A model generated the notes under the pieces. The model saw only the letters and a list, made by a program, of their open reading frames with translations, searched no databases and was not told the origin of the DNA. From assembly GCA_043815245.1 (NCBI GenBank), contig JBDRJD010000014.1, positions 14,986 to 78,985 on the forward strand: a DNA stretch of 64,000 bases. The letters run 5' to 3'. The stretch comes from an archaeon. Its GTDB lineage: Archaea; Nanobdellota; Nanobdellia; Pacearchaeales; GW2011-AR1. This document shows, in pieces, positions 1,845 through 54,183 of the stretch. Position 1 is the stretch's first letter. Each line of letters opens with the position of its first letter. Position numbers and translations under genes: made by a program.

Positions 1845-1855
1845 TTTCCTTAAAG

Positions 1856-1928
1856 TGGGGCTACCAGGATTTGAACCTGGGTCGCAAGGTCCCAAACCTC
1901 GAAGGCTACCAGACTACCCCATAGCCCC
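1856..1928 (-). tRNA. tRNA-Pro (anticodon UGG by my manual fold)
   Basis: Reverse complement is GGGGCTATGGGGTAGTCTGGTAGCCTTCGAGGTTTGGGACCTTGCGACCCAGGTTCAAATCCTGGTAGCCCC. It has a 7-bp acceptor stem, a CCAGG/CCTGG T-stem with a TTCAAAT loop, and an anticodon stem CGAGG/CCTTG around loop TTTGGGA. CCA is not encoded. Confidence 0.75.
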
Positions 1929-5896: not shown

Positions 5897-5931
5897 GAAA
5901 GCTTTATAAATGTATTTCTTCTCTTCAATTT

Positions 5932-12824: not shown

Positions 12825-12904
12825 GCCCGCGTCGCATAATGGTATTGCACCGGCCTTGAGAGCCGGGCCCTTTGGGCCTCCAGGTTCGATTCCTGGCGCG
12901 GGCG
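12825..12904 (+). tRNA. tRNA-Ser (anticodon UGA by manual fold), class II with long variable arm
   Basis: GCCCGCG acceptor pairs with CGCGGGC. Anticodon stem CCGGC/GCCGG encloses loop CTTGAGA, there is a GCCC-TTT-GGGC variable arm, and the T-arm is CCAGG-TTCGATT-CCTGG. The discriminator is G. Confidence 0.75.
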
Positions 12905-12956: not shown

Positions 12957-13235
12957 CTAAACGAACCAACCTTTAAATCTTGCCAAAAAACCTTTTTTTT
13001 CAACTGAATCTTCAATTGGTTCCACTTCATACTTGATTACTGGCTTTTCTATCATCTTAGGAGCAGACTTTGCTAAAGATTCGTTGGCAACTTTAATAGC
13101 CCTGTCAATTTCAGCTCTGGAATAGCCTTGATTTTGTAACGCAAATTTTAAAGAATCGGGAGTATAACCTTTTTGCAGATTTTTCACAATATAATTTGCA
13201 AGTTGTTGTATATAATCAGAATCTCTTAAAGCCAT
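12957..13235 (-). CDS. Hypothetical small protein directly downstream of the large surface protein gene
   Basis: A 92-aa ORF with no recognisable motif. Confidence 0.3.
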   Translation of the reverse strand: MALRDSDYIQQLANYIVKNLQKGYTPDSLKFALQNQGYSRAEIDRAIKVANESLAKSAPKMIEKPVIKYEVEPIEDSVEKKGFLARFKGWFV

Positions 13236-13271: not shown

Positions 13272-16200
13272 TTACTTGTCCTTCTTTTTGAATATCTTAT
13301 CTTTATACTCTATACCTGCAAGTACGATTATAACTATTAAAACAATAATGATTGCGCCCCCTAAAATCCAGAGCAAGGTATTTCTTTTTGAGGCCTGTAC
13401 CTGGGCTTCAATATCTACCGTTTCGTTTCCTAAGGCATCACCAGTGGAAGAGTCATCATTAGCAGTATCCGAACTAACAACTTTTTCTGATATGGCGAAG
13501 TAGCTAAAACTCGTTACATTAGCCTCATAATAATGATAATTTCCAGATTTTTTCTTGTATCTTGTGGCAACTTCACCCCATTCTTCTGAGTCCTCATTAA
13601 ATTTAAAGATGGCTACGTTATCTTTGTCTCCTACCTCTTTTGTAACCCAGGTATCATTTAGTTTTAAAGTGATCATAGCTCTTGAAAGATTATCATCTAG
13701 ACTTACAGGTAATATCTGGATATAGCCATAGATCTTTCCTGGTTTTGGTTTAGAAACTACAGAAGGCCTAGAGGTGTATCCTGTAACAGTAATTTTTACT
13801 GAACTTGTATTTGAAGAAACCTCTAAATCAATTTTTTCTATTCCAATCTTAGCTGAATTCACACTCATAGAATAACTTTCACCACGGTACATATTAGTCC
13901 AACTTCTAACAACTTTTGTAGTATCACTTTCACTATCATCATCTCCCCCTCCACCACTGCTACTACTATCATCATCGTCTGAGGAACTTGAAACAGCTGG
14001 AGCTGCTCCAGTAACACTAGGGGATAGTCCTGAAAAGTGGGGAATTTCCATCTGTATTCTGTTGTTTGTAGTATCCATGTAACAAACAGCTGCTCCATTA
14101 CCCTTGTCGCATACAACTCCTGCAGAGGTTAAATAACCACTATAGCGAGAGTTATTATACTCAATAAACTGATCTGTTAGGTTGGTGTCTGTGTGTCCTG
14201 CAGAACGGTTCCAAGCAGTTGAGAATTGGTGAGGGTTGTTGGGATCTTCTTGATATAAAAGAGGAATGCTCATGTTGTAGTTCCAGCTTTCATTGACTAA
14301 AGAAGCATCGTAAGGAATAATTAGAGTTACATTATCATAAACATCTGAAGGGACAAAGTTACCAAACTCCCAAGTGCCTGTTGATGATGCAAGGGAAGCA
14401 TTATCAATTACAGCAAACATTGGAGGTTGTTTAGCCGAAAACATGTCAAAATTATTAAATTTCATTTTTACGCCTGTTGCAATTACTTCTATCTCTAAAT
14501 CTACGGAACCAGCTACAAGAGCCTTAAGCGGATTAAAATTAGTTGCATTCATTGAAGTAATAACTTGAGAAGTGCCTGCTCTGTAAAAAGTCATTAGAAT
14601 TGGCATAGAGGAAGCGTTTATTTCAACTAAATCCCCTGTGGAATTCATCTCTCGAAGTCCTTTATCTCCGCCTGCAGAAAAGTCAATGGATACTAAGGTG
14701 ATATTATGTTCTGATTTACTGAGATTGAGAACTTTCTCAATTGGCGGGCCATCATTTGAATAAACAGAAACCTCAACCCAATTAGAGTTATTTAAGATAG
14801 GTAGATAGAAGGTACCATTTGTGATGGTCTCGATTATATATGTTACTGTTCCGAATCCTGCTGCTGCATTTTTGACCTTAACATCTGCATTAAGACTGTT
14901 CGTAATTGCTCCTCCGGTTTCATTTTGTATATTTATTTGAAGAACAGAGGTGTTAACAGAAACTAACCCTCCTGAATAATAGCTTCCCAATAATTTGTAA
15001 AGAGTTATGTTCAATTCATCAGCTCCGGTAGTGTTTGTGGTAAGATTTGAAAATCCTGCGAGGTACAGCCCACCTTTTCCTGCTTCTGAAGAGGCATTCT
15101 TAGCATAAAACTCTAGCATATAAGGCACAGCCCCTAATAAAGAAATATTGTACCAAGCTATCCCATTTGTATGGTATGAAGAGTTACATTCTGGGTGTAA
15201 AGTGAGATTGTAACTTATGTCCGCAGTAAGATTTATATCCCCCTGGTCTGCATGGGCTGGAGGAATAAAGCCTGCCCAAGGTTGTAGTTTTGGGATTAAA
15301 CTAGTTAGATTGTATTGAGTTAATGAGGTCTCATTATAATTCGGAGAAATCTTAATACACCCAGTTAGTCTAATCCTGGTTATTGAAAGGTCTTGAGTGA
15401 CTTGGAGAACTTGGCCTTCACTGACAGATAAGGAAGAGTTCGATTTTGGAGGTGTGGGGCAGTTTGTATCATTCATAAATGTGCCGTCACAGTCCTGATT
15501 TCCTAAAAACTGGGAAAACTCTCTCACGAACATTACAGTATAGGATTTACCTGCGGGTACAACCACGTCTACAGTAGAAACACTTTGTAGCATTTGACTT
15601 TCAACTGGAAACCCCACCTTCTCATCATAAACCATATATCCAAACTTGTGGCTATCTCCTGTGCTATTAGTAACATTTAATCTAAGAGTTCCTGCAGCTT
15701 GTAGATAAAATGTAGATCCGTTTAAAGTCATATCAGAAAGCTCATTTGTAGCAGTAGGATAGTAAAGTGTAATGGGAAAAGCTGGCAAGATGGCGCCTAT
15801 TTTTGTGGCATAGCCTGATTGATTATAATGTATTAGCTTTAAAATGTACATTTGGGCTGAGCCATTTAAGCTCAAGAAGCTAAAAGAGCCGTTTTCATCA
15901 GTGAGGGTAGATGCTTCGAGAATTTCGCTTGGAGGGCCATTTTGTTGAAGAATAAATTGATATATAGAAATATTTGTACCATTTTGTAAGTTTCCAGATT
16001 CATTTTTTACATACCCATAAAAAGGAATATTTGCAGTAAGCCCAATAATAGAAGAATTTGAAGTGCCATCAAACGCTGTGGCGTTGATAGTTATGGTTAG
16101 GTCACCTATTCCCAAGCTTGTAATCCCAAACCAAAAGTCTTGCATGGTCTGATTTTCAATAATGCCCGAAGAGGTAGTATTTGTGAACATAATAATGCCA

Positions 16201-16457
16201 GAGCCACTAGAGGTAGTATTTGTGAAAGTAAAATCTGAAGCCGAACTACCGTTTGAATTTCCTACAAAATCTCCATCAAAAACAAAAGTGACCTGAGATA
16301 TATTTGCGTTTTCTGCTCCAATCGTGATATTAACAAAGTTGTTGCCAGTCATATTAACATAATCTGAACTTTGGATGGTAAAATTGGCTTCTAAGCCAAG
16401 GGAGCAACTAGGGAAGAAGATTAAGAAAAACAAAAATAATGTTAATTTTTTCACCAT
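13272..16457 (-). CDS. Large secreted surface (S-layer-like) glycoprotein with C-terminal membrane anchor
   Basis: 1061 aa with an N-terminal signal peptide (MVKKLTLFLFFLIFFPSCSLG). It has dozens of N-x-S/T sequons, an S/D/G-rich linker (SSSDDDDSSSSGGGGDDDSESD), and a C-terminal TM helix with a basic tail (LLWILGGAIIIVLIVIIVLAG...KKKDK). Confidence 0.6.
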   Translation of the reverse strand: MVKKLTLFLFFLIFFPSCSLGLEANFTIQSSDYVNMTGNNFVNITIGAENANISQVTFVFDGDFVGNSNGSSASDFTFTNTTSSGSGIIMFTNTTSSGIIENQTMQDFWFGITSLGIGDLTITINATAFDGTSNSSIIGLTANIPFYGYVKNESGNLQNGTNISIYQFILQQNGPPSEILEASTLTDENGSFSFLSLNGSAQMYILKLIHYNQSGYATKIGAILPAFPITLYYPTATNELSDMTLNGSTFYLQAAGTLRLNVTNSTGDSHKFGYMVYDEKVGFPVESQMLQSVSTVDVVVPAGKSYTVMFVREFSQFLGNQDCDGTFMNDTNCPTPPKSNSSLSVSEGQVLQVTQDLSITRIRLTGCIKISPNYNETSLTQYNLTSLIPKLQPWAGFIPPAHADQGDINLTADISYNLTLHPECNSSYHTNGIAWYNISLLGAVPYMLEFYAKNASSEAGKGGLYLAGFSNLTTNTTGADELNITLYKLLGSYYSGGLVSVNTSVLQINIQNETGGAITNSLNADVKVKNAAAGFGTVTYIIETITNGTFYLPILNNSNWVEVSVYSNDGPPIEKVLNLSKSEHNITLVSIDFSAGGDKGLREMNSTGDLVEINASSMPILMTFYRAGTSQVITSMNATNFNPLKALVAGSVDLEIEVIATGVKMKFNNFDMFSAKQPPMFAVIDNASLASSTGTWEFGNFVPSDVYDNVTLIIPYDASLVNESWNYNMSIPLLYQEDPNNPHQFSTAWNRSAGHTDTNLTDQFIEYNNSRYSGYLTSAGVVCDKGNGAAVCYMDTTNNRIQMEIPHFSGLSPSVTGAAPAVSSSSDDDDSSSSGGGGDDDSESDTTKVVRSWTNMYRGESYSMSVNSAKIGIEKIDLEVSSNTSSVKITVTGYTSRPSVVSKPKPGKIYGYIQILPVSLDDNLSRAMITLKLNDTWVTKEVGDKDNVAIFKFNEDSEEWGEVATRYKKKSGNYHYYEANVTSFSYFAISEKVVSSDTANDDSSTGDALGNETVDIEAQVQASKRNTLLWILGGAIIIVLIVIIVLAGIEYKDKIFKKKDK

Positions 16458-16477
16458 CTTTTATTGAATTAATTAGT

Positions 16478-16492
16478 TTTTGAGGATTTATA
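16478..16492 (-). promoter_or_regulatory. Strong archaeal TATA-box (TTTATAAAT) about 25-35 nt upstream of the surface-protein start
   Basis: The plus-strand sequence ggaTTTATAAATttt gives a consensus-like TATA on the reverse strand, at the expected spacing. Confidence 0.4.
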
Positions 16493-16496
16493 AATT

Positions 16497-18215
16497 TTAG
16501 CTGTGCTTTTCGGTTTTAGGGTGTTCATGACCCTGCTTTTTTCTTTCTGTTAATGTTTGAATATGCTTATTTTTTTCCTTATCAAACTTTTTTATATCGA
16601 AACCAATCCTCTGAATCATTTCAGAAGCATACTGCCCTCCGAGAAAGTGGGGGGTAAGCACATAGGAAGCACCGGCAGCATAAAGATTAAGAGACTCCTC
16701 AATTTGATGCGCCATCACCATTATAATTGAATTTTGATTTTTCTCTCTAACTTTATTTACGATTAGCATATTTGTATCTTGATTAGGAATTGTAGAGAGG
16801 ATCATCTTTGCCTTGTCTAAATTAATCTCCTTCAAGAATTCTACATCTTCTGCATCCCCATATACGCAGGGGATATTATTATCTACAAGCTTCCTAACCG
16901 TCTCAGGATTGAAATCGACGACTATGTATTTTTTATTTATTTTGTCTAGGGCGCCTAGCAGATTAAACCCTATTCGATTGTAACCGAAAAGGATTACTTC
17001 GTATTTTTGTTTAGCCAGATCTTTTTCCCGTAAAGTGCGTTTTCGCTCAAATAAGGAAAGGGGACTTGAAAGGAGAGGGTATATCTTCCTGGAGTAATTA
17101 ATAAGGTAGGTAGAGGAGATTGTAGTAAAAACAAATACAAGTGTCATCAGGGGAAGGATGTCATATGGTTCAGAGGAAAAGTTACTTAGGACGACTGGAA
17201 GGGAGATAAGAATTATAGAAAATTCAGAAATTTGGCCTAAGCTAATCCCTGTCAGAAAACTACTTCGCTTTTTGTAGCCTAATAACCCCATGGGTAGCAG
17301 AATTATTAATAGCTTGAATAGAAATACAAAAAAAGAGAAGATTAGTGCGGGAACAATCAATTGAGAAAGATTACCCAGTGGTATCTGTAGGCCTATAACA
17401 ATAAAGAAGATGATAATAAAAAAGTCGCGTAGGGGCCTGACTCTTGAAGATATTTCAAAGTGGTAGGGGGACATTGAGAGAGTTATTCCAGCTAGTAGGG
17501 CTCCAATTTCAATAGACTCAAATAAATAAAAGAATAGTGAAGCAAGCATAAAACACCATCCAACTGAAAATAAAAAGAGTAGCTCTTGGTTTTTTGCAAC
17601 AAACTTAGTTATGCCTGGAAGTATGTAAACACTTGCAAAAAACAAACCCAATAGTGTGATTATCCCATAAATAATTGAATTAGGAAGAGGTACATGGCTG
17701 GTACCATAGATTGTTGATACAATCATTAAGATAATAATGACTACTAAATCTTGAAGTATGAGGACTCCTGTTGAAATCTTACCATACATACTTTCTAAGT
17801 CCCCTTTGTCATGAAGAAGTTTCATAACAATTATTGTACTACTAAAAATTAGGGCAATCCCAATATAAGTAGAAGCCAAAAAAGAGAATCCTAAATAATA
17901 AGCAACTAAAAAACCAACTAAAGCGGTACATAGCATCTGTACAAAGGCCACGACAAATGATGCAAAACCAACCTCCTTAAATGAATTGGGGTCAAGGTGC
18001 AATCCTACAATAAATAAAAGGAATGCTACTCCAATATGTGAAAAAGTTAGGACAACTTCACTTTGTGAGATAATTTGTAAAAAGAATGGGCTAATTAATA
18101 TTCCGGTAAGAATATAACCTATTATCGCGGGCTGCTTTAATAATCTCATTAAGAAAGAGATTACAAGGGCGGTTACTAAAACTAAACTCAAGTGGAAAAA
18201 TATATCCTGTACCAT
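16497..18215 (-). CDS. Kef-type K+/H+ (CPA2) antiporter with C-terminal RCK/TrkA-N domain
   Basis: A multi-TM N-terminal exchanger domain is followed by a Rossmann region (ILFGYNRIGFNLLGALDK...VVDFNPETVRKL...YGDAEDVEFL). Confidence 0.7.
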   Translation of the reverse strand: MVQDIFFHLSLVLVTALVISFLMRLLKQPAIIGYILTGILISPFFLQIISQSEVVLTFSHIGVAFLLFIVGLHLDPNSFKEVGFASFVVAFVQMLCTALVGFLVAYYLGFSFLASTYIGIALIFSSTIIVMKLLHDKGDLESMYGKISTGVLILQDLVVIIILMIVSTIYGTSHVPLPNSIIYGIITLLGLFFASVYILPGITKFVAKNQELLFLFSVGWCFMLASLFFYLFESIEIGALLAGITLSMSPYHFEISSRVRPLRDFFIIIFFIVIGLQIPLGNLSQLIVPALIFSFFVFLFKLLIILLPMGLLGYKKRSSFLTGISLGQISEFSIILISLPVVLSNFSSEPYDILPLMTLVFVFTTISSTYLINYSRKIYPLLSSPLSLFERKRTLREKDLAKQKYEVILFGYNRIGFNLLGALDKINKKYIVVDFNPETVRKLVDNNIPCVYGDAEDVEFLKEINLDKAKMILSTIPNQDTNMLIVNKVREKNQNSIIMVMAHQIEESLNLYAAGASYVLTPHFLGGQYASEMIQRIGFDIKKFDKEKNKHIQTLTERKKQGHEHPKTEKHS

Positions 18216-18264
18216 CTTTTATTTTACCAATTTAAAAACTAATTGTGCTTTAAATAGGTTTTCC

Positions 18265-19122
18265 TTAGAATAAAATTGGGGTGATAAACACCTCTATTAG
18301 TGCTGCAAGAAACAAAATGACTACTGCAATTATTATTAGGTTAAGGGCATCTTGAAGGATATTCCAGAAGTATTCACTTCTGGTATCATGCTTTATAACT
18401 GCTACACTAACTATCCCGCCTGCAAGAGCTCCAATAAAGTAGGCTGCAATCTCAGGAAGGCCGTGAATCATGTATCTTGCGAGACCTATGGGCAAACTTG
18501 CAAGTGAGGACCTCGTAAATATGCCTATTGCCGCAGCAATTACACTTGCGTTCCATGCCAGCACAAAAATAGCTCCTGCACCAAATATGAGTGAGAATAC
18601 TAAGGTAAAGATTAACACATAAACATTATTTGCAAATATCATAAACAATTTTTCCTTAGCAGTTAGGAAAGCGGTAGTTCTTGATACTCCCTTCACCCCA
18701 TATTCTGCAACACACTCATTAAAATTTGCTGGCCTATTGATAACACAGTAAGTTTCAATCTGTGCTCTAAAGTTTTGATTTGAAGCAAGAACTATATACC
18801 AAAAGGAAAAGGCGACTATAAAACCGATAAAAAGCCACATTAAAATATGTAAGGCCTTGCTGTGCTCTTTTAGTATTCTGAGAAATCCAGAGTACTCGAG
18901 ATTTTTTTCTTCTTCGTTCTTTAAAACAGCATATACAAACGGTAGAGAGAACATAACAGTGAAGGTTACAATTATCATTCCCGAGTACTTTGCAAGAACA
19001 GCATCTTGACCAAAAATCCAGTTTACCAGGAGTACTGCAAGGGAAGCATAAAATAGTCCTACGAAAAACATTTCCCATGGCTCTCTCTCTGCCTTCTTTG
19101 GGCTCAAAAGCATCTCTAACAT
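18265..19122 (-). CDS. SpoIIM-like (DUF95) integral membrane protein
   Basis: A multi-TM protein with the conserved HGLPEIAAYFIGALAGG segment typical of the stage-II-sporulation-M family. Confidence 0.45.
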   Translation of the reverse strand: MLEMLLSPKKAEREPWEMFFVGLFYASLAVLLVNWIFGQDAVLAKYSGMIIVTFTVMFSLPFVYAVLKNEEEKNLEYSGFLRILKEHSKALHILMWLFIGFIVAFSFWYIVLASNQNFRAQIETYCVINRPANFNECVAEYGVKGVSRTTAFLTAKEKLFMIFANNVYVLIFTLVFSLIFGAGAIFVLAWNASVIAAAIGIFTRSSLASLPIGLARYMIHGLPEIAAYFIGALAGGIVSVAVIKHDTRSEYFWNILQDALNLIIIAVVILFLAALIEVFITPILF

Positions 19123-19185: not shown

Positions 19186-19920
19186 TTGAATATGGGAAAA
19201 GAGGTAGCGATACTTATTGTACTTGTGATAGTTGTAATAGGGGTAGTACAATATTTTGTTTTATTTGGAAATGGGGAGGATGCTCCAACAATTAATCAGA
19301 GTGGGGGGGAGGAAATTCAAGTTTGGGATGTCAATTTGAGTGTTGAGGAAAATCAGACCGGAGCTGTAAACCAAACTGGGGGATCTAACCAGACACCCGA
19401 GTCTAATCAGACACTCCAAGAAGAAAGCGAGGTAATAGAAATAAGATACTTTTCCCTTTATCCGGGAGAGGGGAGCTATGAATACTTTATTATAAATAAC
19501 TCTGGGAAGTTTGTAGGAATAACTAGCAAACCTGCAAGAGTATCGGGGGGATCTGCGCCAAAAAAAGTATATAATATAACTTTTGATGAGCTTTGGAATT
19601 TATACCAGAGAATAGGGGGCAGAGGATTTTGGACATTGGATACTGAATATTGGCCTTCTTGGAATTCTAGTTATTCATTTGGGAATAGTTCTTTAATTAG
19701 TGTTAGGGGGGAAGGAGATTACAAGGAAGTGGATGTATTTGATGGTTTAGGGCCCGGAAGGTATTATGAGGTGGTTACTGAGATAATGGCAGAGTTTCCA
19801 ATGGAAGTAGACTGTGCATTAGAGCACAACGATGATTTCCCAAACGATAATCTAGATAATGCTCCTTGCCCTGATAACTGGTATTACTTTAGGTATAGAG
19901 GATATTGTGTTTGTCTTTAA
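19186..19920 (+). CDS. Hypothetical membrane-anchored extracellular protein with tandem NQT sequons
   Basis: Has an N-terminal TM helix, then ENQTGAVNQTGGSNQTPESNQT (four N-Q-T sequons with 5-7 aa spacing), and a Cys-rich C-terminus. Confidence 0.4.
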   Translation: MNMGKEVAILIVLVIVVIGVVQYFVLFGNGEDAPTINQSGGEEIQVWDVNLSVEENQTGAVNQTGGSNQTPESNQTLQEESEVIEIRYFSLYPGEGSYEYFIINNSGKFVGITSKPARVSGGSAPKKVYNITFDELWNLYQRIGGRGFWTLDTEYWPSWNSSYSFGNSSLISVRGEGDYKEVDVFDGLGPGRYYEVVTEIMAEFPMEVDCALEHNDDFPNDNLDNAPCPDNWYYFRYRGYCVCL

Positions 19921-36134: not shown

Positions 36135-36205
36135 ACGGGGAATTGTTTTTATTTATTTATAAATGTTTGGACAAAAATTTAGGCATAATAAAAAGCAGAT
36201 ATTTT

Positions 36206-39659: not shown

Positions 39660-42380
39660 ATGGGTGAAGACAAATTTGAGAAAGATGGGAATCTCTTAAT
39701 AGAAAAGAGGAAAAAAGATATTCTGAAGTTTCTAAAAAGCAAAGGTAGCCTCTTAGTTATATTGGGGGTGATTATCTTAATTTTCTTAACTTGGCATACA
39801 AGAACTGTAAACCTGGAGCAGTTAAAAGATATAACTACGGGGGATTATACTTTGGGGCCGGACCTAGACCCTTTTTTGTTTTTGAGATATGCGGAAATGA
39901 TCTTAGAAACTGGAGATCTAGTGGAAGTGGATTACATGAGATATGTCCCCCTTGGGTATAATACTGCAGGAGAGACGCGGTTGCTACCTTACATGATTGT
40001 CTACCTTTATAAGGTCTTAAATTTTTTTAACCAGTCAACACTAAGTTACGCGGCAGTGATATTTCCCGCATTAATGTTTTTGTTAACTGCAGTGACTTTT
40101 TTTCTTTTTGTAAGAAAAGTTTTTGATAAGCATAAATATATGGACTGGATCTCATTAATAGCTACCGCCTTCCTTATTGTTTCGCCTTCCTTATTGTCTA
40201 GGACAGTGGCTGGAATTCCTGAGAAGGAATCTGCAGGCTTTTTCTTTATGTTCCTTGCTTTTTACTTTTTTATCTATGCTTGGAGATGTCAGAGTCTAAA
40301 AAAGAGTTTGATATTGGCTGTTCTGGCCGGAGTGTCTACTGCATTAATGGGTTTGATTTGGGGGGGTTGGATATATATCTGGGTTAGTATTGCTCTTTTT
40401 GCCTTTGTTGTTTTTATAATTGGGGGGGTGGGTAAAAAGGAAGCGTATGTTTATGGTTTGTGGTGGGTGTTTTCTGTTTTGGGGGTCATGGTTTTCTCAA
40501 CGAGATTTTCTCTGGCAGATTTGATATATTCAACTTCGACAGGAATAGCTTTTGTGGTGCTTTCCTTGATTATTGTGGACTACATAGTTTTTAATACAAA
40601 GATCAAAGAAATTAAGAATATAGTAAAAATGAGGTCAAAAGTTCCAGATCGCGTCATTTCGATAATCTTATTAACCATACTGGGAATAGCAGCCTCAACT
40701 ATCTTTTTAGGAATTTCTTTTATTCCAAATTTCGTTAGCCATATATTTTTCTCTTTAACACAACCATATACTGATAGACTTTCATTCACTGTTGCTGAAA
40801 ATAGACAGCCTTATTTTAGTGAATGGGCTGGGAGCTTTGGACCAATAGTTGGAAGCATACCTTTATTTTTCTGGTTATTTTTCTTAGGCTCTATATTGTT
40901 ATTTTATGACTCTGTAAAAAAGTTAGAGAAAAAGAGGAGGGGGATGCTTTTAGCAGGATACATTCTCTTTTTATTTGCCCTGATCTTTAGTAGATATGGC
41001 TCTAACCATATTATGAATGGAATGAACAATCTTAGTAAGGGCGTTTACTTCGGAGGATTTATAATTCTGGGAGGTATTGGAAGTTATATATATTACAAAT
41101 ATTATAAAGAGGGGGAATTAACTGAACTTAAAAAAATAGATACCTCTTATTTATTTTTGATAGCTTTTTTTATTGTAAGCTTAATAGGTGCTAGAAGTGC
41201 AGTTAGACTGATTATGGTTTTGTCACCTCCTGCTGCAGGGATAGTCGGTTTTTTTACAATGGCTGTTATTGAAAGGGCTAGAAAGGAAAAAGAAGAGACC
41301 TTGAAAATGGCCTTGGTAGTGGGGGCCATAATTATAGCGATCCTCTCAATATACGCATTTTACTTTAATTATCAGGTTACAGTGGCTCAGGCGAGGGGCA
41401 TGGTGCCTTCTTCATATACAAACCAGTGGCAAAAAGCAATGGAATGGGTAAGAACTGAAACCCCTGAAGAGGCGGTGTTCTCACATTGGTGGGATTACGG
41501 TTATTGGGTTCAAACAATTGGTGAAAGGGCGACTGTTTTAGATGGAGGGAACTCGCTCCCTTATTGGAATCATTTGATAGCACGCCACGTACTAACGGGT
41601 AATGATGAAAAAAATGCATTAGAATTTTTATATACGCACGAAGCCACGCACCTTTTAATTGACTCAACAGACGTTGGAAAATATCCTGCATATTCTACAA
41701 TTGGTAGTGATGAAAATTACGACAGAGCCAGTTGGTTGCCTGTAATGCAGAGAAGAGAAGATTTAATGAAGGAGACTAAGAACGGAACAGTACACTATTA
41801 CGAGGCCAATTTTGGATTAGATGAGGACATACTTTGGGAGATAGATGGTGGGCAGGTGTTACTCCCAGGAGGAGTCGCAGGCGTGGGAGCCATCCAACTG
41901 AAGATTGAGAATAATGAGTTGAAACAGCCAGAGGCAATTGTGATAGATAGGGGGAAACAGTATAACCTCCCCTTAAGATATGTTTACTATAAGGGAGAAC
42001 TAATAGATTTTGGCGGTGGGTTAGAGGCGGGAATATTCGTATTCCAGAGACTTATAAGTGATGGAAGTAGGATAAATGGAGTAGACGAAATTGGGGCAGC
42101 CATCTACCTTAGCCCTAGAACGATAAGAGGGTATATGGCTAGACTGTATTTGCTGGATGAACAAGATACTCCATTCAAGCTGGTCCATGTAGAAGAGAAC
42201 TTAATAGTTTCTCAGCTGAGAGCTCAGGGACTGCAGCTTGATTCTTTTGTATTATATGGTGGCCTGCTTGGCCCAATTAAAATTTGGGAGATTGAGTACC
42301 CCGGAGATATCACAGTAAATGGGACTTATCTTGAACTAGACTTTTCAAATGAGGAGTTAAAAATATCCAGGAGCGCATAA
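39660..42380 (+). CDS. aglB: Archaeal oligosaccharyltransferase AglB (STT3 homologue)
   Basis: A 906-aa protein with ~13 N-terminal TM helices and the diagnostic WWDYGYW motif (FSHWWDYGYWVQT), followed by a soluble C-terminal domain. Confidence 0.9.
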   Translation: MGEDKFEKDGNLLIEKRKKDILKFLKSKGSLLVILGVIILIFLTWHTRTVNLEQLKDITTGDYTLGPDLDPFLFLRYAEMILETGDLVEVDYMRYVPLGYNTAGETRLLPYMIVYLYKVLNFFNQSTLSYAAVIFPALMFLLTAVTFFLFVRKVFDKHKYMDWISLIATAFLIVSPSLLSRTVAGIPEKESAGFFFMFLAFYFFIYAWRCQSLKKSLILAVLAGVSTALMGLIWGGWIYIWVSIALFAFVVFIIGGVGKKEAYVYGLWWVFSVLGVMVFSTRFSLADLIYSTSTGIAFVVLSLIIVDYIVFNTKIKEIKNIVKMRSKVPDRVISIILLTILGIAASTIFLGISFIPNFVSHIFFSLTQPYTDRLSFTVAENRQPYFSEWAGSFGPIVGSIPLFFWLFFLGSILLFYDSVKKLEKKRRGMLLAGYILFLFALIFSRYGSNHIMNGMNNLSKGVYFGGFIILGGIGSYIYYKYYKEGELTELKKIDTSYLFLIAFFIVSLIGARSAVRLIMVLSPPAAGIVGFFTMAVIERARKEKEETLKMALVVGAIIIAILSIYAFYFNYQVTVAQARGMVPSSYTNQWQKAMEWVRTETPEEAVFSHWWDYGYWVQTIGERATVLDGGNSLPYWNHLIARHVLTGNDEKNALEFLYTHEATHLLIDSTDVGKYPAYSTIGSDENYDRASWLPVMQRREDLMKETKNGTVHYYEANFGLDEDILWEIDGGQVLLPGGVAGVGAIQLKIENNELKQPEAIVIDRGKQYNLPLRYVYYKGELIDFGGGLEAGIFVFQRLISDGSRINGVDEIGAAIYLSPRTIRGYMARLYLLDEQDTPFKLVHVEENLIVSQLRAQGLQLDSFVLYGGLLGPIKIWEIEYPGDITVNGTYLELDFSNEELKISRSA

Positions 42381-46328: not shown

Positions 46329-47479
46329 AAATTTGGTTAGTTTATGACTATCTGAGTGAGGTGGGAGGGGTGGAAAGAGTAATGGCTACTCACGCACGAT
46401 GGTTCCAAGGGCAAGGACATGAAGTAAGTTTAATATTTAGTTATGTGGATGAAAAAACTAGAGAATATAGTTTTTTAAATGGGCTAGATATAAAGGAGAT
46501 GTCATCTTTTAAAATCAAAAGCGAGCCAATAAAATTATTTTCTTCGCTATTGGGTTTTAATAACTTTAAGAAACATAAAGTAGACTTTGTTATCTGTTAC
46601 TCCTTCCCTTCATTGTTTAGCACGAGGGGTATGGATTGTAAGAAAGGATTCTATTATCTTCCAATGGAGTTTGTTTATTTTCCGCTGAAGAAAAAAATAG
46701 AATGGGCCAATGACATAAAAAGGAAGCTGGCGGTTATAGGAAGTTTTTTTCTTTCTCCGGTTTTAAAAAGATGGGATAAAAAATTAATAGAGAATAAGCT
46801 GGTAATAGCCAATAGTGAGTTTACTAAAAATGAGATTAGTCAGAGGTATGGGGTGGAATCATTTGTGTCCTACCCCCCATTAAATGACGTATTTAAGCCA
46901 GAAAAAGATTACGGAAGTATTTTGGAGAAATATGGAATAAAGAAAGATTTTATACTGACGGCCGGCAGGATAATTCCTGATAAAAAAACAGATTGGTTAA
47001 TTGAAGTTTTTTCAAAAATAAAGGGAGAAATGGATTTTGTGATAGCAGGAGAGATAAGTGGAGAACACAAAGAAGAGCTTTTGAGGTTAGGTGAAAAACT
47101 GAACCTAAAAGGTAGGATTAGGATACTCGGATTAGTAAACCAAGAAGAATTAGTAAAACTTTACACAGCGGCGAAGGTATTTGTTTTTGCTTCACCAAAA
47201 GAAGCATTTGGATTAGTTCCAATTGAAGCAATGGCGTGTGGTACTCCAGTGGTAGCTTGGGACGATAAGGCTGGTCCGAATGAGTATGTGTTAAATAAAA
47301 TTAATGGATATTTAGCCAAACCCTATTCAACAATAGACTTTAAAGAAAAAGTTGAAAATGTTCTAAGGTCGGACTTTAAGAAGAAAAATAAAGTGAAGAT
47401 AATCAATTCAATAAAAAAATTTTTAGAAAAGTCTCAAGCAGATTTATTTTTAAGGAAAGTGGAGAATTATATTCAGTAG
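46304..47479 (+). CDS. GT4 (GT-B) glycosyltransferase
   Basis: Has the C-terminal EAFGLVPIEAMACGTPVVAWD (E-x7-E-like) retaining GT-B signature. Confidence 0.6.
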   Translation: MEVTYEKMKIWLVYDYLSEVGGVERVMATHARWFQGQGHEVSLIFSYVDEKTREYSFLNGLDIKEMSSFKIKSEPIKLFSSLLGFNNFKKHKVDFVICYSFPSLFSTRGMDCKKGFYYLPMEFVYFPLKKKIEWANDIKRKLAVIGSFFLSPVLKRWDKKLIENKLVIANSEFTKNEISQRYGVESFVSYPPLNDVFKPEKDYGSILEKYGIKKDFILTAGRIIPDKKTDWLIEVFSKIKGEMDFVIAGEISGEHKEELLRLGEKLNLKGRIRILGLVNQEELVKLYTAAKVFVFASPKEAFGLVPIEAMACGTPVVAWDDKAGPNEYVLNKINGYLAKPYSTIDFKEKVENVLRSDFKKKNKVKIINSIKKFLEKSQADLFLRKVENYIQ

Positions 47480-48933
47480 TGCCCCGAATATGCTTCCTTT
47501 AAAAAAGACCAAAACTTCCACTCATAGCCAAACGAAAAAAAACGAAATCTCCACCTGAGCAAGGCCGAAACTCTATAAAGGTTATTGAAAATAAAGTAGG
47601 GCAAATATAGGAACTTTGAAGGGAGGTTTTGATAAGCCATTTTAGTCTGATTGAAATAATTATATCTCACGATTGCTGAAGCGGTTTCAAGCCAGGATTT
47701 ATACCGCTTGTCTAACCAAATCTGAGATGCAAGGGTGGAAAAATTGTATTCAGACCACTCTTCAAGATTTTGAGGAAGTTTTGAGTTGAGCTTAAGACTT
47801 TCTTCAAATAAGGGGGTCCCGGGGTAGGGGGTAAATCCGAATAGTCCGTTGATGTGAGCTTTAGGATTTATTTTGTGTATCTTATCAATTGTGTTCAGAG
47901 TTTGAAGGATATCTTGTTTAGTCTCGTAGGGAAATCCACACATAAAGCTGATTACGGGAACAATGCCTGTTTGTTTGCACTTGGCTACAGTTTTTAACAT
48001 ATCATCTATTGTAATATCTTTTGTAATCATTTCTAAAACTTTTTTTGAGCCCGACTCTCCTCCAAAAGAAAGAGTGCTACAACCACTATTTTTTACGAGT
48101 TTGATAAAATCCAGGCCATATTTAGCAAAGTAATCAAATCTACAAGAAGTGGTCCAGTCTATCTTGATGTTCTCATCAATTAACCCTTTGGATATTTTTT
48201 CAACTCTACTTTTATCAACAAAAAACTCATCTTCTGTAAACTCTAAACCTTTTGTATTAGTTAAGTTAATTATTCTCTTGATATCTGCTAGCACCTTATC
48301 AGCATCGCGGGCACGCCATCTCCTCTTGTTAAAGGCAGTGTTGTAACAGAACTTACATCTGTGAGGGCAACCTCTGCTGGAATTATAGGGGAAATGGCCT
48401 AGGGTTGTTTTTGATTTGTTAGAGTCATAAAGCTCGTAAGCCATGGGGGGAAGGTCATTTAGATTCATAAAGGGCCTGTCAGAATTAGAGATGACTTGAC
48501 CTTTTTTGTCCTTATAGGTAAGCCCTTTAATTTTGCTTAGCGAAGTTTTTTTTACTAAAGCCTTGGCTAATTCAATGGCTGTGATCTCCCCTTCACCTCT
48601 TACAACAATATCCACGTTTTTGTTTAAAACAGACTGTGTAGGAAGTAGTGTAACATGAATGCCCCCCCAAACAACAGGAATTTGGGGATACTTTCTTTTG
48701 ATATATTCTGAAAATTTTAAGGCATATTTAAGTTGTTTTCCAGTTAAGGTGGATACCCCAACAAACACAGAATCCGAATAATCAAATTTCGTGTAATCTT
48801 GAAAGCGCAAGTCTATAATTTTAACTTCAAAACCGTTCTTAACAAGAACTGAACCGATAGCTAATAGTGAAAGGGGTAGCCTTGTTAAGTGAGTTTTTTC
48901 GTCTGGATAAACTAAAAATATTTTCCGGCCCAT
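47473..48933 (-). CDS. B12-binding radical SAM (class B) enzyme
   Basis: Has an N-terminal cobalamin-binding Rossmann region and CPHRCKFCYN (CX3CX2C). Confidence 0.6.
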   Translation of the reverse strand: MGRKIFLVYPDEKTHLTRLPLSLLAIGSVLVKNGFEVKIIDLRFQDYTKFDYSDSVFVGVSTLTGKQLKYALKFSEYIKRKYPQIPVVWGGIHVTLLPTQSVLNKNVDIVVRGEGEITAIELAKALVKKTSLSKIKGLTYKDKKGQVISNSDRPFMNLNDLPPMAYELYDSNKSKTTLGHFPYNSSRGCPHRCKFCYNTAFNKRRWRARDADKVLADIKRIINLTNTKGLEFTEDEFFVDKSRVEKISKGLIDENIKIDWTTSCRFDYFAKYGLDFIKLVKNSGCSTLSFGGESGSKKVLEMITKDITIDDMLKTVAKCKQTGIVPVISFMCGFPYETKQDILQTLNTIDKIHKINPKAHINGLFGFTPYPGTPLFEESLKLNSKLPQNLEEWSEYNFSTLASQIWLDKRYKSWLETASAIVRYNYFNQTKMAYQNLPSKFLYLPYFIFNNLYRVSALLRWRFRFFSFGYEWKFWSFLKEAYSGHY

Positions 48934-50050: not shown

Positions 50051-51679
50051 TTAGTTTCTTAAAATTTCATATACAAAAACACCGTCAAATATTTGCGACA
50101 GTTTAAAAGTTAGGCTGCCATATGATTTTTCTTGTTTTATGTCTTGTTGACCTGTATTAAAGTCTATAGTAGTATCCATAAAAGGAATCTCCCATTTTTG
50201 TTGAGATTCACGCTTCATCCAATCTGGATGGTTTGGTTCCCAAAATGAGATTAATAGAAATCTAATTGCTGGGTCTTCCTCTATTTTAGGTAGTACTTCT
50301 TCGAAAGTTGTATCTTGATTGTACTGCACTCCTACAAGCTCAGCAGGGCTAACCATCTGCCTTTCAGCATAGTAGGAGAATTGAGGAGTTAAAACAATAA
50401 GAGTTTTGTCTGATGGAGAGGTCCGATCCTTAATGTAAAATGAAGCGTCCTTAACCCCGTTGAAACTACTTATTTTAGACTTGATAATCGTATCAGCATG
50501 CTGAACTTCATAGAAAGCACCATAGGCTAGCAATACAAGGATAATGACCAGAGCAATCTGTTTATTATATTTTTTAAGGTTATCATAAATAAATATGGCC
50601 CCCTTTGCAAGGCAAATTAAGGAACCGAAAAGCAGCGGGAAGAACCATCTCGGCTCACCAATGTCAGTTGGATGTCTTTGGTAAAACAAAAAGTAGGACA
50701 ACACAATGATTATTGATAAAACTGCAAATAATTCACTTTTAATCTCACTTTTACCAACCTTTCTAAAGTAATCAAGTGATAAAAAAGTATTTATTAAAAG
50801 CAAAATGAATCCAAGCCAGAATAAATAAAGTAAAATGCTAAGTGTGGAACTGGTAAATGAACTAAAATATGCAGGAAATATTTGGAAGGGGAAGAGATTA
50901 AAGGGAATTTCAGTATGTAGATAGATTCCAGCCACCTCAGTAATATTAGAGGCAAATACAAATTTCTCTAAAAGAGAGAAACTTACTATAAACACGGCTA
51001 AAGCTATCCAGTTGTACTTATCCTTTAAGAGTGAAGACCACTTACGAGTAATTAGCATATAAAAAAAGAAAAAGAAACCAAAAAGAAAATACCCTCTCCT
51101 CATAGAGTAGGATAAAACGACAAATAATACAGTTAGTGGAACTGCCCAGTTAGGATTAATCTTCCCAAATATTTTTTCTCCGCCTTCGTATCCTTGCCAG
51201 AAGACATAGATCGCTAAAAGACCGAAGAATAATCCTGGGACACCTAAATGGAATCTCATTGAGTTAAATAACACTACCCAGAAAGTGGCCATTAAAAACG
51301 AGGCAATTAGCCCCACCTTTTTATCTTTAAACATTAAAACGGCAGTTGCATAGGTGAGCCAGATAAGTAGGATGGAAGGTAGAATCTCTAATATAAATTT
51401 TATGGCAGGGTCAGAGAACCCTATCTTAAATAAAGCCGCTACAAAATAAATAAATAGAGAATTATGGGCATCGGAAACCATCCAGTAGGTAGTGTACCCT
51501 CCAAGAGCTTTAGCATAGGCCATATAGTCCCCTTCATCCCACCATATTGCCTGGTCCTTTGTGAGAAAAAAATAATAAAGCCTGATAGCTACGCCTAAGA
51601 TAAATATTCCCAAAAAAATTCTATTATAGGGATCTTTTAACCAATTTCTGACACTCTCTTTTATTTTACTAATTTCCAT
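50051..51679 (-). CDS. GT-C fold glycosyltransferase (ArnT / PMT-like, GT39/GT83)
   Basis: A 542-aa polytopic protein with an N-terminal WWDEGDY loop motif after TM1 and a soluble C-terminal domain. Confidence 0.5.
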   Translation of the reverse strand: MEISKIKESVRNWLKDPYNRIFLGIFILGVAIRLYYFFLTKDQAIWWDEGDYMAYAKALGGYTTYWMVSDAHNSLFIYFVAALFKIGFSDPAIKFILEILPSILLIWLTYATAVLMFKDKKVGLIASFLMATFWVVLFNSMRFHLGVPGLFFGLLAIYVFWQGYEGGEKIFGKINPNWAVPLTVLFVVLSYSMRRGYFLFGFFFFFYMLITRKWSSLLKDKYNWIALAVFIVSFSLLEKFVFASNITEVAGIYLHTEIPFNLFPFQIFPAYFSSFTSSTLSILLYLFWLGFILLLINTFLSLDYFRKVGKSEIKSELFAVLSIIIVLSYFLFYQRHPTDIGEPRWFFPLLFGSLICLAKGAIFIYDNLKKYNKQIALVIILVLLAYGAFYEVQHADTIIKSKISSFNGVKDASFYIKDRTSPSDKTLIVLTPQFSYYAERQMVSPAELVGVQYNQDTTFEEVLPKIEEDPAIRFLLISFWEPNHPDWMKRESQQKWEIPFMDTTIDFNTGQQDIKQEKSYGSLTFKLSQIFDGVFVYEILRN

Positions 51680-53069
51680 TTTTTATTTTTTCTATAATCT
51701 TTGATGTAGATTTGCCAGTTGTTAATGGGACAAATTTAAACTCTCCGCAATATGACTCTACAGCTCTTCGCTCTTTTTGGTCCATAAGTTCAAGATTATA
51801 ATCTGAACCTTTTACATATATGTCAGGATTTAGTTCTATTAAGTACTTTTCTACAGATGATTCTGGGAATATGAGAATGTAATCTACAAATTCTAGGGAA
51901 GAAAGTATCTCGGCTCTTTCACTTTCAGACTGTAGGGGGCGTGAAGGACCTTTTAAAGCTCTGACAGAAGAATCAGAATTAAGACCAATAATTAATAAGT
52001 CTCCTAGCTTTTTTGCGTCTTGTAAGTATCTTACATGACCTACATGCAGTAAATCAAAACAACCATTGGTCCAGACTATTTTCCTTCCTTTTCTTTTTGC
52101 ATCTTGAGCTTGCTTTTTTAGCTCTTCGAGACTAATTACTTTCTTGAATTCTGAGAGAAACTTGTTTTTTAACTCACTGGAACTTACTGAATATGTGCCT
52201 TTCTTCTCTACAGCAATTCCAGCAGCATGATTAGCAATAATTGCTGCTTCTTCTAATGGGGAACTAGTTGCAAGCGCAAGTGCAAGTGTAGCTATAACTG
52301 TGTCCCCAGCGCCAGTTACATCATAAACTTCTTTTGCAAAAGTTGGAATCTCGGTAGTTTTATCTGAAAAAAGAATCATTCCTCTCTCTCCATGAGTTAT
52401 CAAGATGTTTGAGTTAAGCTCTTGTCTTAGCTTTTCTCCGGCCTGATAAATGTCTGAGCAGCCAGCCATTTCGAGGGCTTCTCTTTCATTTGACTTTATG
52501 AGTAAAACTCCATTGTATAGATTTTTATTTTTTGGCTTTGGATCTACAATAATCTTGCTTTTAAAATTAGATATTAAGGAGATAAGCTCTGAAGATATGG
52601 CACCTTTTGCATAATCTGAAAGGATTATTATATCAGATTCTGAGGCGTATTTAATTAATTGTTGTTTTACCTGATCTGAAAAGCTTTTTTCTGCGAATAT
52701 TTCTTTATCATACCTCAGTAATTGCTGGCCCTTTCCTATAATTCTTGTTTTTTGGATTGTGTCATATCTGTTGTCTAGAAGGTGTTTTATGTTTTTCCCA
52801 TCCATTAGCGTTTTCAGAATTTCGGATTCAGAGTCATTTCCACAAAAAGAAACAATAGTTGCTGATCCACCCAATGAAGCAATGTTGGAGGCAACGTTTC
52901 CGGCCCCTCCAATCTCGTGAAATTCTTTTTTTATATGAACGATTGGAACTGGCGCTTCTGGATTTATTCTTGTAACATCTCCTTCAAAATACTTGTCAAG
53001 CATAATGTCTCCTATGACTAGTACTCTTTTTTCTTTAAACTGATTAACGACCTCACTAAGCGCTTTCAT
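51669..53069 (-). CDS. hldE: Bifunctional D-glycero-beta-D-manno-heptose-7-phosphate kinase / heptose-1-phosphate adenylyltransferase (HldE/RfaE)
   Basis: Has an N-terminal PfkB ribokinase-like domain (VLVIGDIMLDKY...GAGDT) and a C-terminal cytidylyltransferase-like domain (WTNGCFDLLHVGHVRYL). Confidence 0.75.
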   Translation of the reverse strand: MKALSEVVNQFKEKRVLVIGDIMLDKYFEGDVTRINPEAPVPIVHIKKEFHEIGGAGNVASNIASLGGSATIVSFCGNDSESEILKTLMDGKNIKHLLDNRYDTIQKTRIIGKGQQLLRYDKEIFAEKSFSDQVKQQLIKYASESDIIILSDYAKGAISSELISLISNFKSKIIVDPKPKNKNLYNGVLLIKSNEREALEMAGCSDIYQAGEKLRQELNSNILITHGERGMILFSDKTTEIPTFAKEVYDVTGAGDTVIATLALALATSSPLEEAAIIANHAAGIAVEKKGTYSVSSSELKNKFLSEFKKVISLEELKKQAQDAKRKGRKIVWTNGCFDLLHVGHVRYLQDAKKLGDLLIIGLNSDSSVRALKGPSRPLQSESERAEILSSLEFVDYILIFPESSVEKYLIELNPDIYVKGSDYNLELMDQKERRAVESYCGEFKFVPLTTGKSTSKIIEKIKNGN

Positions 53070-53583: not shown

Positions 53584-53597
53584 TTTTAATAATTAGC

Positions 53598-54170: not shown

Positions 54171-54183
54171 AAATATGTAAGAA

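Follow-up and report, generated by a model that had tools for sequence, protein, structure and literature searches.

A sequon-dense, membrane-anchored PGF-pre-PGF domain protein as a probable N-glycosylated envelope protein of a Pacearchaeota-like DPANN archaeon

Results

In the present study, a stretch of 64,000 nucleotides (nt) of archaeal DNA (GenBank assembly GCA_043815245.1, contig JBDRJD010000014.1, positions 14,986 to 78,985), called the window hereafter, was analyzed with regard to the gene at 13272..16457 of the minus strand. This open reading frame (ORF) is a complete coding sequence with an ATG start and encodes 1061 amino acids (aa) plus stop; the GC content is ~35%. The encoded protein is a 100% match to GenBank MFH1500676.1, 'MAG: PGF-pre-PGF domain-containing protein [archaeon]', is acidic (isoelectric point 4.58) and has few Cys residues. 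The gene is separated from its upstream neighbour by a gap of 39 nt, and inside this gap there is a TATA-like box, TTTATAAAT.

The protein is composed of several modules, which are collected in Table 1. The n/h/c layout of the signal-like segment is shared by all 44 first-round homologues described below and, among 136 more distant representatives, by 109. An N-terminal lipobox (FPSC) was considered and rejected, as it is off the [LVI][ASTVI][GAS]C pattern and the homologues carry plain VSA-type sites. The following ectodomain holds 47 of the 52 N-x-S/T sequons of the protein and was not matched by any Pfam or NCBIfam model, the PF13620 match (found in 8 of 39 aligned family members) being below the cutoff. 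After the linker AVSSSSDDDDSSSSGGGGDDDSESDT comes the PGF-pre-PGF domain, which reached 66.6 bits with the TIGR04213 model (curated cutoff 28) over model positions 15-152 of 153 and is thus a member of that family. A second spacer and the transmembrane (TM) helix TLLWILGGAIIIVLIVIIVLAGIE with its basic tail complete the protein. An initial annotation of this gene had described the same ORF with an upstream promoter, a signal peptide, a flexible Ser/Asp/Gly-rich linker and a C-terminal TM helix with a KKKDK tail, and all of these were recovered here.

PGF-pre-PGF domains are common in surface proteins of methanogens and anaerobic methanotrophic archaea (ANME), and the name and description of TIGR04213 imply that the domain precedes a PGF-CTERM signal. 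In our protein, the C-terminus does end with a hydrophobic helix followed by a basic cluster (1027-1050, YKDKIFKKKDK), as in PGF-CTERM proteins, but the PGF motif is absent before the helix, where the sequence reads KRNTLLWILGG. Among 136 relatives, a PGF was found in the last 40 residues of 1. Hence, residues 855-990 are like the TIGR04213 proteins of Methanosarcinales, ANME and haloarchaea in passing the curated cutoff, whereas the query and 135 of the 136 relatives are unlike them in having an anchor without PGF. Archaeosortase A requires a PGF motif directly in front of the C-terminal hydrophobic helix for processing; hence, neither such processing nor a lipid anchor is predicted here, and the 1061-aa protein is not predicted to be a PGF-CTERM/archaeosortase A substrate in spite of its PGF-pre-PGF domain. 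No exosortase/archaeosortase family match was obtained among the window proteins scanned, which covered part of the window ORFs.

Table 1. Positions of the features of the 1061-aa protein gene, of other window features and of genes in related loci (L003 to L008; coordinates of the latter are those of the respective locus)
Feature	Position	Strand	Residues	Remarks
Signal-peptide-like segment (Sec-type)	16392..16457	-	1-22	MVKK, hydrophobic core 4-22, then SLG; by hydropathy
All-beta ectodomain (predicted)	13998..16391	-	23-820	Chain of beta-sandwich domains; AlphaFold2, alignment A1, Foldseek
CarboxypepD_reg-like (transthyretin-like) beta-sandwich	15864..16016	-	148-198	Pfam PF13620, E 0.002, below curated cutoff
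P-H-F-S-G motif	14028..14042	-	806-810	Best conserved motif in the family; HF|S as candidate site of self-cleavage
Ser/Asp/Gly-rich linker AVSSSSDDDDSSSSGGGGDDDSESDT	13920..13997	-	821-846	Predicted disordered, pLDDT <50
PGF-pre-PGF domain (TIGR04213)	13488..13895	-	855-990	NCBIfam; 11-strand beta-sandwich model
Second spacer, acidic and Ser/Thr-rich	13380..13484	-	992-1026	pLDDT <50; between PGF-pre-PGF domain and membrane
Single C-terminal TM helix TLLWILGGAIIIVLIVIIVLAGIE	13308..13379	-	1027-1050	Strongly hydrophobic
Basic cytoplasmic tail YKDKIFKKKDK (predicted)	13275..13307	-	1051-1061	Basic tails throughout the family
TATA-like box TTTATAAAT	16486..16494	-		29-37 nt 5' of ATG, A-rich bases before the box
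AglB (STT3-type oligosaccharyltransferase)	39660..42380	+		Pfam STT3 and STT3-PglB_core; 23.2 kb from the 1061-aa gene
92-aa gene	12957..13235	-		36 nt 3' of the 1061-aa gene; possibly co-transcribed
tRNA-Ser(TGA)	12825-12904	+		Between P1 stalk-protein gene and 92-aa gene
tRNA-Pro(TGG)	1855-1928	-		Near left end of the window
Upstream shorter protein, L003	8358-9854			498 aa; 56% identity over 175 aa to P0011 C-terminus
Upstream shorter protein, L005	2890-4314			474 aa; 45% identity over 105 aa to P0005
Upstream shorter protein, L006	7462-9822			Shares ~40-55-aa stretch only
S_layer_MJ-type (PF05124) gene, L007	10001-12595			~860 aa product
S_layer_MJ-type (PF05124) gene, L008	10001-12649			~860 aa product

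The 52 sequons (24 NxS and 28 NxT, with zero NP[ST]) correspond to 4.9 per 100 aa, and 58% of the Asn residues of the protein sit in them. All are located within residues 25-1011, after the signal segment and before the TM helix. In the remaining 72 window ORFs, 86 sequons were counted over 18,834 aa, which corresponds to a background of 0.46 per 100 aa; the count agrees with the very high sequon density given in the initial annotation. Composition-preserving shuffles led to an expectation of 17.3 +/- 3.6 sequons (z-score 9.5-9.8 for the observed number), and the control registers [ST]-x-N, N-[ST] and N-x-x-[ST] remained at expectation with z-scores of 0.4, -0.5 and -0.8, respectively, so that only the glycosylation motif itself is enriched. 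Furthermore, in an alignment of 39 family sequences (A1), the conservation of sequon Asn in the ectodomain was 0.76, compared with 0.36 for other Asn and 0.46 for all ectodomain residues, and the +2 position of the query sequons was S/T at 0.81. As many as 38 of the 52 sequons were kept as sequons in at least half of the 38 homologues, and 21 of the 52 in at least 80% of them. At the level of sequence, this conservation pattern is a signature of purifying selection on glycosylation sites, and the sites are presumably occupied in the cell.

The AglB gene of the window is found at the distance from the 1061-aa gene (~23 kb) that the initial annotation had given, and its product carries the expected motifs WWDYG (at 610), DxD (DLD, at 68) and DxxK (DVGK, at 671). 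It heads a glycan-biosynthesis island at 39.6-56 kb of the window. This island encodes a polyprenyl-phosphate sugar-phosphate transferase of glycosyltransferase family 4 (GT4), a flippase-like protein, three further glycosyltransferases (two of GT2 and one of GT1), a B12-radical-SAM enzyme, a UDP-N-acetylglucosamine (UDP-GlcNAc) 2-epimerase, an unassigned 8-TM protein, HldE, GmhB, GmhA and a GT9 heptosyltransferase-like protein. With its sequons in the inferred extracytoplasmic part and a motif-intact AglB in the same genome, the 1061-aa protein has the properties of an AglB acceptor. No STT3/AglB gene was found within 10 kb of the homologue in any of six related loci (L003-L006, L009 and L010), and therefore the link with the island is in trans only. 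Thus, the earlier statement that the protein is a probable substrate of the glycan island is a sound argument in trans, given the motif-intact AglB 23.2 kb away in the same window, and it finds no support from synteny.

The 1061-aa protein is likely not the sole acceptor. Only one further window protein (19192-19920, plus strand; 242 aa) is predicted to have a large external part. It has a single N-terminal TM helix, carries 10 sequons (4.1 per 100 aa), some of them in repeated G-x-N-Q-T units, and is likely a second AglB acceptor. Its C-terminal part is Cys-rich, and it had no Pfam/NCBIfam match. As for the glycan, the ADP-heptose route is complete in the island (51669-55284, minus strand; HldE 444 bits, GmhB 178 bits and GmhA 229 bits, plus the GT9 heptosyltransferase-like protein), which suggests a heptose-containing glycan. 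The 8-TM protein in the middle of the island (50051-51679, minus strand; 542 aa, ~8 TM segments) had no Pfam/NCBIfam match and may be an unrecognized GT-C glycosyltransferase or polymerase.

By a word-index search, 44 relatives were obtained with 33-56% identity, most of them covering ~77% of the query. A profile search against 1.84 billion cluster representatives (50%-identity clusters) led to 5587 matches at E<=1e-3, 3743 at 1e-10 and 1078 at 1e-30, and the names retrieved for them were all 'hypothetical protein'. The named relatives come from Candidatus Pacearchaeota, 'Nanoarchaeota archaeon' and archaeon BMS3Abin17, and the family is apparently confined to DPANN archaea. All first-round members share a signal-like N-terminus and a C-terminal helix with a basic tail, and their sequon density is 4.0-6.7 per 100 aa. 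In the 136 distant representatives, the mean was 4.93 sequons per 100 aa (range 2.55-7.16), and a C-terminal TM helix was present in 111. Judged from sequence, the family appears to belong to the prokaryotic proteins with the highest predicted density of N-glycosylation. The anchor of the family is a plain helix, often with W-x-W at its start, plus the basic tail; matches of family members to RIFIN, STEVOR and EssA were discarded as artefacts of this combination. In A1, the invariant residues were F, P, G, Y, sequon Asn and the Cys pair C783/C792, and no catalytic constellation was apparent among the conserved residues. Many members of ~880 aa start at profile position ~150 and are thus without the first domain, and some others have extra N-terminal extensions of 200-400 aa.

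The membrane-proximal part is more variable. The PGF-pre-PGF domain was present in 4 of 39 aligned family members, and a word-index search with the C-terminal 216 aa resulted in a single match, P0226. The other aligned members carry a different membrane-proximal module of ~100 aa with the consensus ...HYVG...VSSxPQxATLxxGExKKF.... In addition, relatives encode shorter sequon-rich TM-anchored proteins directly 5' of the family gene (3.8-8.3 sequons per 100 aa; Table 1). Those in L003 and L005 carry this ~100-aa module together with the anchor, and the ectodomains of these proteins in L003, L005 and L006 are unrelated to the family ectodomain. Since module and anchor are common to proteins with unrelated ectodomains, their sequences suggest a reusable stalk cassette.

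The structure was predicted by AlphaFold2 using A1, with a mean predicted local distance difference test (pLDDT) of 70.4 and a predicted template modelling score (pTM) of 0.60. Residues 23-820 were mostly at 70-93 and nearly all beta-strand. Residues 822-1026 were poorly modelled because most of the aligned sequences carry another C-terminal module; when residues 840-1061 were remodelled with five PGF-pre-PGF-bearing sequences, an 11-strand sandwich with pLDDT >90 for ~849-990 was obtained. In Foldseek comparison with the PDB, the ectodomain matched Gram-positive pilins and adhesins (TIE, SpaC, RrgB, LrpA, EbpB, UafA and PrgB) as well as cohesin modules and macroglobulin-type proteins (CD109, alpha-2-macroglobulin and C5), with low template modelling scores (TM-scores) on the query of 0.07-0.13, and no solved archaeal S-layer protein was among the top 50. 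The family profile gave nothing meaningful against PDB sequences (best E 0.37), and the PGF-pre-PGF segment alone gave no hit. The predicted ectodomain is best described as a chain of immunoglobulin (Ig)-like, CnaB-like and macroglobulin (MG)-like sandwiches of the kind common in surface proteins; a more specific assignment is not supported.

Discussion

The findings of the present study point to an exported, TM-anchored envelope glycoprotein of a Pacearchaeota-like DPANN archaeon that is glycosylated by AglB, and we give this reading a probability of about 0.75. The proposed course is as follows. The signal peptide would direct export, and the ~800-residue chain of beta-sandwich domains would fold outside the cell, where AglB would move the lipid-linked glycan made by the island onto up to ~50 Asn, about one per 15 residues. 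The acidic Ser/Gly linker, the PGF-pre-PGF beta-sandwich and the second spacer would hold the ectodomain off the membrane, and the plain C-terminal TM helix with its basic cytoplasmic tail, not an archaeosortase-type PGF signal, would fix the protein. The architecture, the excess and conservation of the sequons, the size of the family and the presence of AglB are observed; beyond these, we infer export, glycosylation, abundance and a coat role. The role would be that of a structural, glycan-displaying coat, glycocalyx-like or S-layer-associated, which shields and hydrates the cell surface. We believe that the protein more probably accompanies an S_layer_MJ-type lattice protein than replaces it, and a coat protein coexisting with such a lattice takes the largest share among the readings considered, which are not strictly exclusive.

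Some points weigh against this reading. The signal segment was judged by hydropathy and family layout, and its cleavage site by alignment of homologues. Of the source genome, the 64-kb window was covered, and the coexistence with S_layer_MJ-type proteins was judged from related genomes. Codon adaptation relative to the ribosomal-protein genes, used as a proxy of abundance, was uninformative, as the reference genes themselves span 0.69-0.80 and the target gene ranked 20th of 73. Finally, in cultivated Nanobdella, several proteins of the same architecture (signal peptide, Ig-like folds, many sequons and a C-terminal helix) are not highly expressed, and so the architecture alone is no proof that such a protein is a 'major' one.

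The initial annotation had expected an S-layer or major surface glycoprotein. The surface glycoprotein and AglB acceptor part of this expectation is supported by the architecture, the conserved register-specific sequons and the AglB gene, and the S-layer part was not upheld. In Pfam/NCBIfam, TIGR01564, PF05123 and PF05124 gave no hit at E<=1, and the comparison with known archaeal S-layer proteins resulted in no family, profile or top-50 structural match. When A1 was compared by hhalign with an alignment of S_layer_MJ-type proteins (A2), a probability of 43% was obtained over 53 columns, which lie in the C-terminal module that the query is without; by sequence, the two families are unrelated. 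In the L004 locus, an S_layer_MJ-type gene (16110-18749, minus strand) encodes a protein of 879 aa that carries a signal peptide and a Pfam S_layer_C region (PF05124), is devoid of TM helices and has a sequon density of 1.1 per 100 aa. This gene lies 3 kb from that of P0019, one of the four aligned homologues with the PGF-pre-PGF C-terminus of the query. The L004 protein has 43 relatives, including NCBI-named 'S-layer protein' entries of Woesearchaeota/Aenigmarchaeota and Pacearchaeota proteins, and one of them, P0209 (Woesearchaeota), is above the TIGR01564 cutoff. Since related genomes, including that of P0019, also encode an S_layer_MJ-type protein, it is doubtful that the 1061-aa protein is 'the S-layer protein', and naming it so is not justified. 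S_layer_MJ-type genes were seen in Pacearchaeota- and Woesearchaeota-like genomes, and a small HVO_A0114-family gene adjoins them in L004 and L008. A tight linkage of our family with these genes was considered and dropped, as it was found in L004 only and not in L007 or L008.

The Haloferax S-layer glycoprotein was once assumed to be anchored directly by its own TM helix, and in the same manner the 1061-aa protein could be the lattice-forming S-layer protein itself. Its size, acidic isoelectric point, signal peptide, heavy predicted glycosylation and linker with C-terminal anchor would suit such a role, and so would a conserved single-copy gene with its own TATA box, the large clade-wide family and the pTM of 0.60, which suggests a defined multi-domain body. 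However, the protein has no likeness to any S-layer family or solved S-layer structure, its relatives have a separate S_layer_MJ-type protein (in one case 3 kb from P0019), and TIGR01564-type proteins are the abundant S-layer candidates in other DPANN. In Micrarchaeum harzensis, the S-layer candidate with TIGR01564-type domains is the most abundant protein of the organism and is without a clear anchor, and in a lake metatranscriptome, genes annotated as S-layer protein were among the top ten expressed Woesearchaeota genes. Hence, we consider it unlikely that our protein forms the lattice.

A possible role as the membrane stalk or anchor of a TM-less S_layer_MJ-type lattice protein, analogous to SlaB of Sulfolobales, is likewise given a small share. 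The S_layer_MJ-type proteins of the clade have a signal peptide and no TM helix, the authors of the Micrarchaeum harzensis study suggested an unknown TM-bearing partner for its S-layer protein, both genes are found 3 kb apart in one genome (L004), and the family is TM-anchored with long spacers. SlaB is also a TM-anchored, glycosylated beta-sandwich stalk under a lattice protein, but it has no homology to the query and trimerises via a coiled coil, which is absent in the query. Moreover, the two genes are not neighbours in two further S_layer_MJ loci or in the remaining family loci, the glycan-covered ectodomain of 800 aa is large for a mere stalk, and the profile comparison of the two families was limited to 53 columns at 43% probability. 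A host-attachment adhesin of an episymbiotic DPANN cell is improbable. In favour of it, DPANN archaea rely on contact with a host, Gram-positive pilins and adhesins (TIE, SpaC, RrgB, UafA and PrgB) rank first among the structural matches, and some members carry N-terminal extensions of 200-400 aa. Against it, these matches are of a generic beta-sandwich kind (TM-scores on the query 0.07-0.13), the ectodomain shows comparatively good conservation (40-55% identity) and is single-copy in housekeeping contexts, and one glycan per ~15 residues would mask most of the protein surface.

An envelope glycoprotein with a coat role, as preferred here, can be compared with several known systems. The S-layer glycoprotein csg of Haloferax volcanii, an ArtA/PGF-CTERM substrate, is alike in its signal peptide, chain of Ig-like beta-sandwiches, N-glycosylation by AglB, Ser/Thr-rich spacer near the C-terminus and C-terminal hydrophobic helix with a charged tail. 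It is unlike our protein in that no sequence or profile similarity exists and the query is without PGF before the helix; the sequon density of the query is also far higher than that of csg, which we take to have 7 sites. The S_layer_MJ proteins (TIGR01564, Pfam S_layer_N/S_layer_C; Micrarchaeum harzensis) are secreted, glycosylated DPANN envelope proteins of similar size, which occur in the same clade as the query family and at least once in the same genome, but they are unrelated in sequence, without a TM helix and with 1.1 sequons per 100 aa. The putative surface proteins MJ1_0160, MJ1_0707, MJ1_0299 and others of Nanobdella aerobiophila and NEQ300 of Nanoarchaeum equitans have been described with a signal peptide, Ig-like folds (4-7) and N-glycosylation sites (13-49), and several of them, not MJ1_0160, are also reported to have a C-terminal TM helix; they are likened to the query by description only, and the organisms that encode them belong to the thermophilic Nanobdellales and not to Pacearchaeota.

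Pacearchaeota, Woesearchaeota and related DPANN archaea are largely uncultured, and for this reason their cell envelopes are essentially uncharacterised. The gene studied here is a representative of a very large family with an ectodomain outside Pfam/NCBIfam, which combines an ectodomain without relation to known S-layer families, an extremely high number of sequons that is conserved, exchangeable modules next to the membrane (in the query, PGF-pre-PGF without PGF-CTERM) and a conserved HFS turn. The family may be a useful target for glycoproteomics and cryo-electron tomography of DPANN envelopes. It also calls for caution, since a sequon-rich anchored protein is not automatically 'the S-layer' when the canonical S-layer family coexists in the clade.

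The conserved HFS turn belongs to the family motif [IVL]-P-H-F-[ST]-G (query 805-810), which closes the ectodomain directly before the linker. In the model, P806-H807-F808-S809 form the turn between the last two ectodomain strands (800-805 and 810-818) with pLDDT ~89-93, 14 residues after the invariant Cys pair, so that an [HS]-F-S tripeptide is placed in a tight turn before the terminal beta-strand of a predicted beta-sandwich. Among ~171 sequences reaching this region, F was invariant, S/T was present in all but one (D), and H in all but two (K and Q). Nup98 and PIDD cleave themselves at HF|S, with F and S essential and H largely dispensable, and the order of conservation in our family (F > S/T > H) matches this reported importance.

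A second turn of this kind was observed in the PGF-pre-PGF domain, which ends with T982-S983-F984-S985 and a last strand Y-F-A-I-S-E. In the five PGF-pre-PGF sequences, F984, S985, F987, I989 and E991 were invariant, and P0036 reads PGFSMFAIT there. The best Foldseek matches of the domain model were GAIN domains of adhesion G-protein-coupled receptors (GPCRs), namely BAI3 (4dlo, E 1e-3, probability 1.0), followed by CD97 (9mqr, E 5e-3), BAI2 (8oek), CD97 (8ikj) and GPR110 (8hc0); the ankyrin ZU5 domain (6m3p) was matched with a probability of 0.69-0.85. The GAIN matches are marginal, with E from 1e-3 to 0.2, TM-scores on the query of 0.33-0.39 and root-mean-square deviations of 4.5-5.9 A. As in GAIN proteins, the domain is predicted to lie on the outer side of a membrane anchor, from which a spacer of ~35 residues separates it. 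Cleavage of GAIN domains takes place at H-L/I|T/S, in the turn that leads into the last strand, and the fragments stay associated; GPR125 is cleaved at an atypical S-L|S site, and CARD8 and NLRP1 at S-F|S in a ZU5-like domain.

The near-invariant PHFS/T turn, together with the GAIN/ZU5-like fold with its S-F-S turn, thus raises the possibility of self-cleavage. By analogy with Nup98, PIDD, FIIND and GAIN, cleavage at F808|S809 by an N-O acyl shift is conceivable, though we hold it to be rather improbable, and the S-F-S turn of the PGF-pre-PGF domain might cleave likewise. However, no sequence similarity to autoproteolytic families was found with Pfam/NCBIfam, which sets our protein apart from GAIN, Nup98, PIDD and FIIND. 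The H-L/I-T/S tripeptide of the GAIN cleavage site is not present, and the turn S983-F984-S985 has no His. In profile comparison, the last ectodomain domain (690-822) and the PGF-pre-PGF domain were unrelated (0.2% probability), and the conserved PHFS turn can be purely structural. To our knowledge, the self-cleaving GAIN, Nup98, PIDD and FIIND ZU5-like families are not known in archaea. If cleavage at HFS occurs, a glycan-covered outer subunit of ~790 residues would be held non-covalently, by the last beta-strand, on a short membrane-anchored stalk, as a one-gene equivalent of a lattice-plus-stalk pair. In that case, the chemistry of GAIN/ZU5 type would be extended to archaeal surface proteins, and the PGF-pre-PGF domain, which is widespread in archaea, would be a prokaryotic counterpart of the eukaryotic GAIN/ZU5-type autoproteolytic modules.

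Additional Observations

The box TTTATAAAT occurs 11 times in the window against 4.6 expected. It is near-palindromic and can be read on both strands at 16486-16495 and 36155-36164, and further copies stand 20-30 nt before gene starts, e.g. at 5903 (start 5932) and 36901 (start 36931). These copies near several gene starts suggest that it is a general strong promoter element of the source genome. In addition, a TTTATAAA box is found 5' of the homologue in L003-L006 (4 of 4 other loci examined), making five loci with the query.

The product of the 92-aa gene is without a signal peptide and has a hydrophobic and basic C-terminus. It is 60% identical to an 89-aa product in the equivalent place of L005 (7508-7777), the closest long-contig relative; no counterpart was found in the other loci examined and no Pfam/NCBIfam match was obtained.

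The family is present as one copy per locus, and its neighbourhood is often of housekeeping type, next to ribosomal operons. In L003, L004 and L005, the homologue follows a ribosomal L3 operon, an AI-2E-family transporter and a PYNP-type phosphorylase, and in L003 and L005 it also adjoins a convergent P1-L10-L1 operon, like the window gene. In the window, the AI-2E/PYNP pair is followed by AglB, and the 23 kb between are filled by ribosomal operons. In L009 (1-23072), the gene of homologue P0015 is surrounded by genes for glycan synthesis, namely NTP-transferase/GHMP kinase, epimerase, PMT_2, B12-radical-SAM, GT2 and polysaccharide deacetylase genes, and the B12-radical-SAM gene of this locus parallels that at 47473-48933 of the window.

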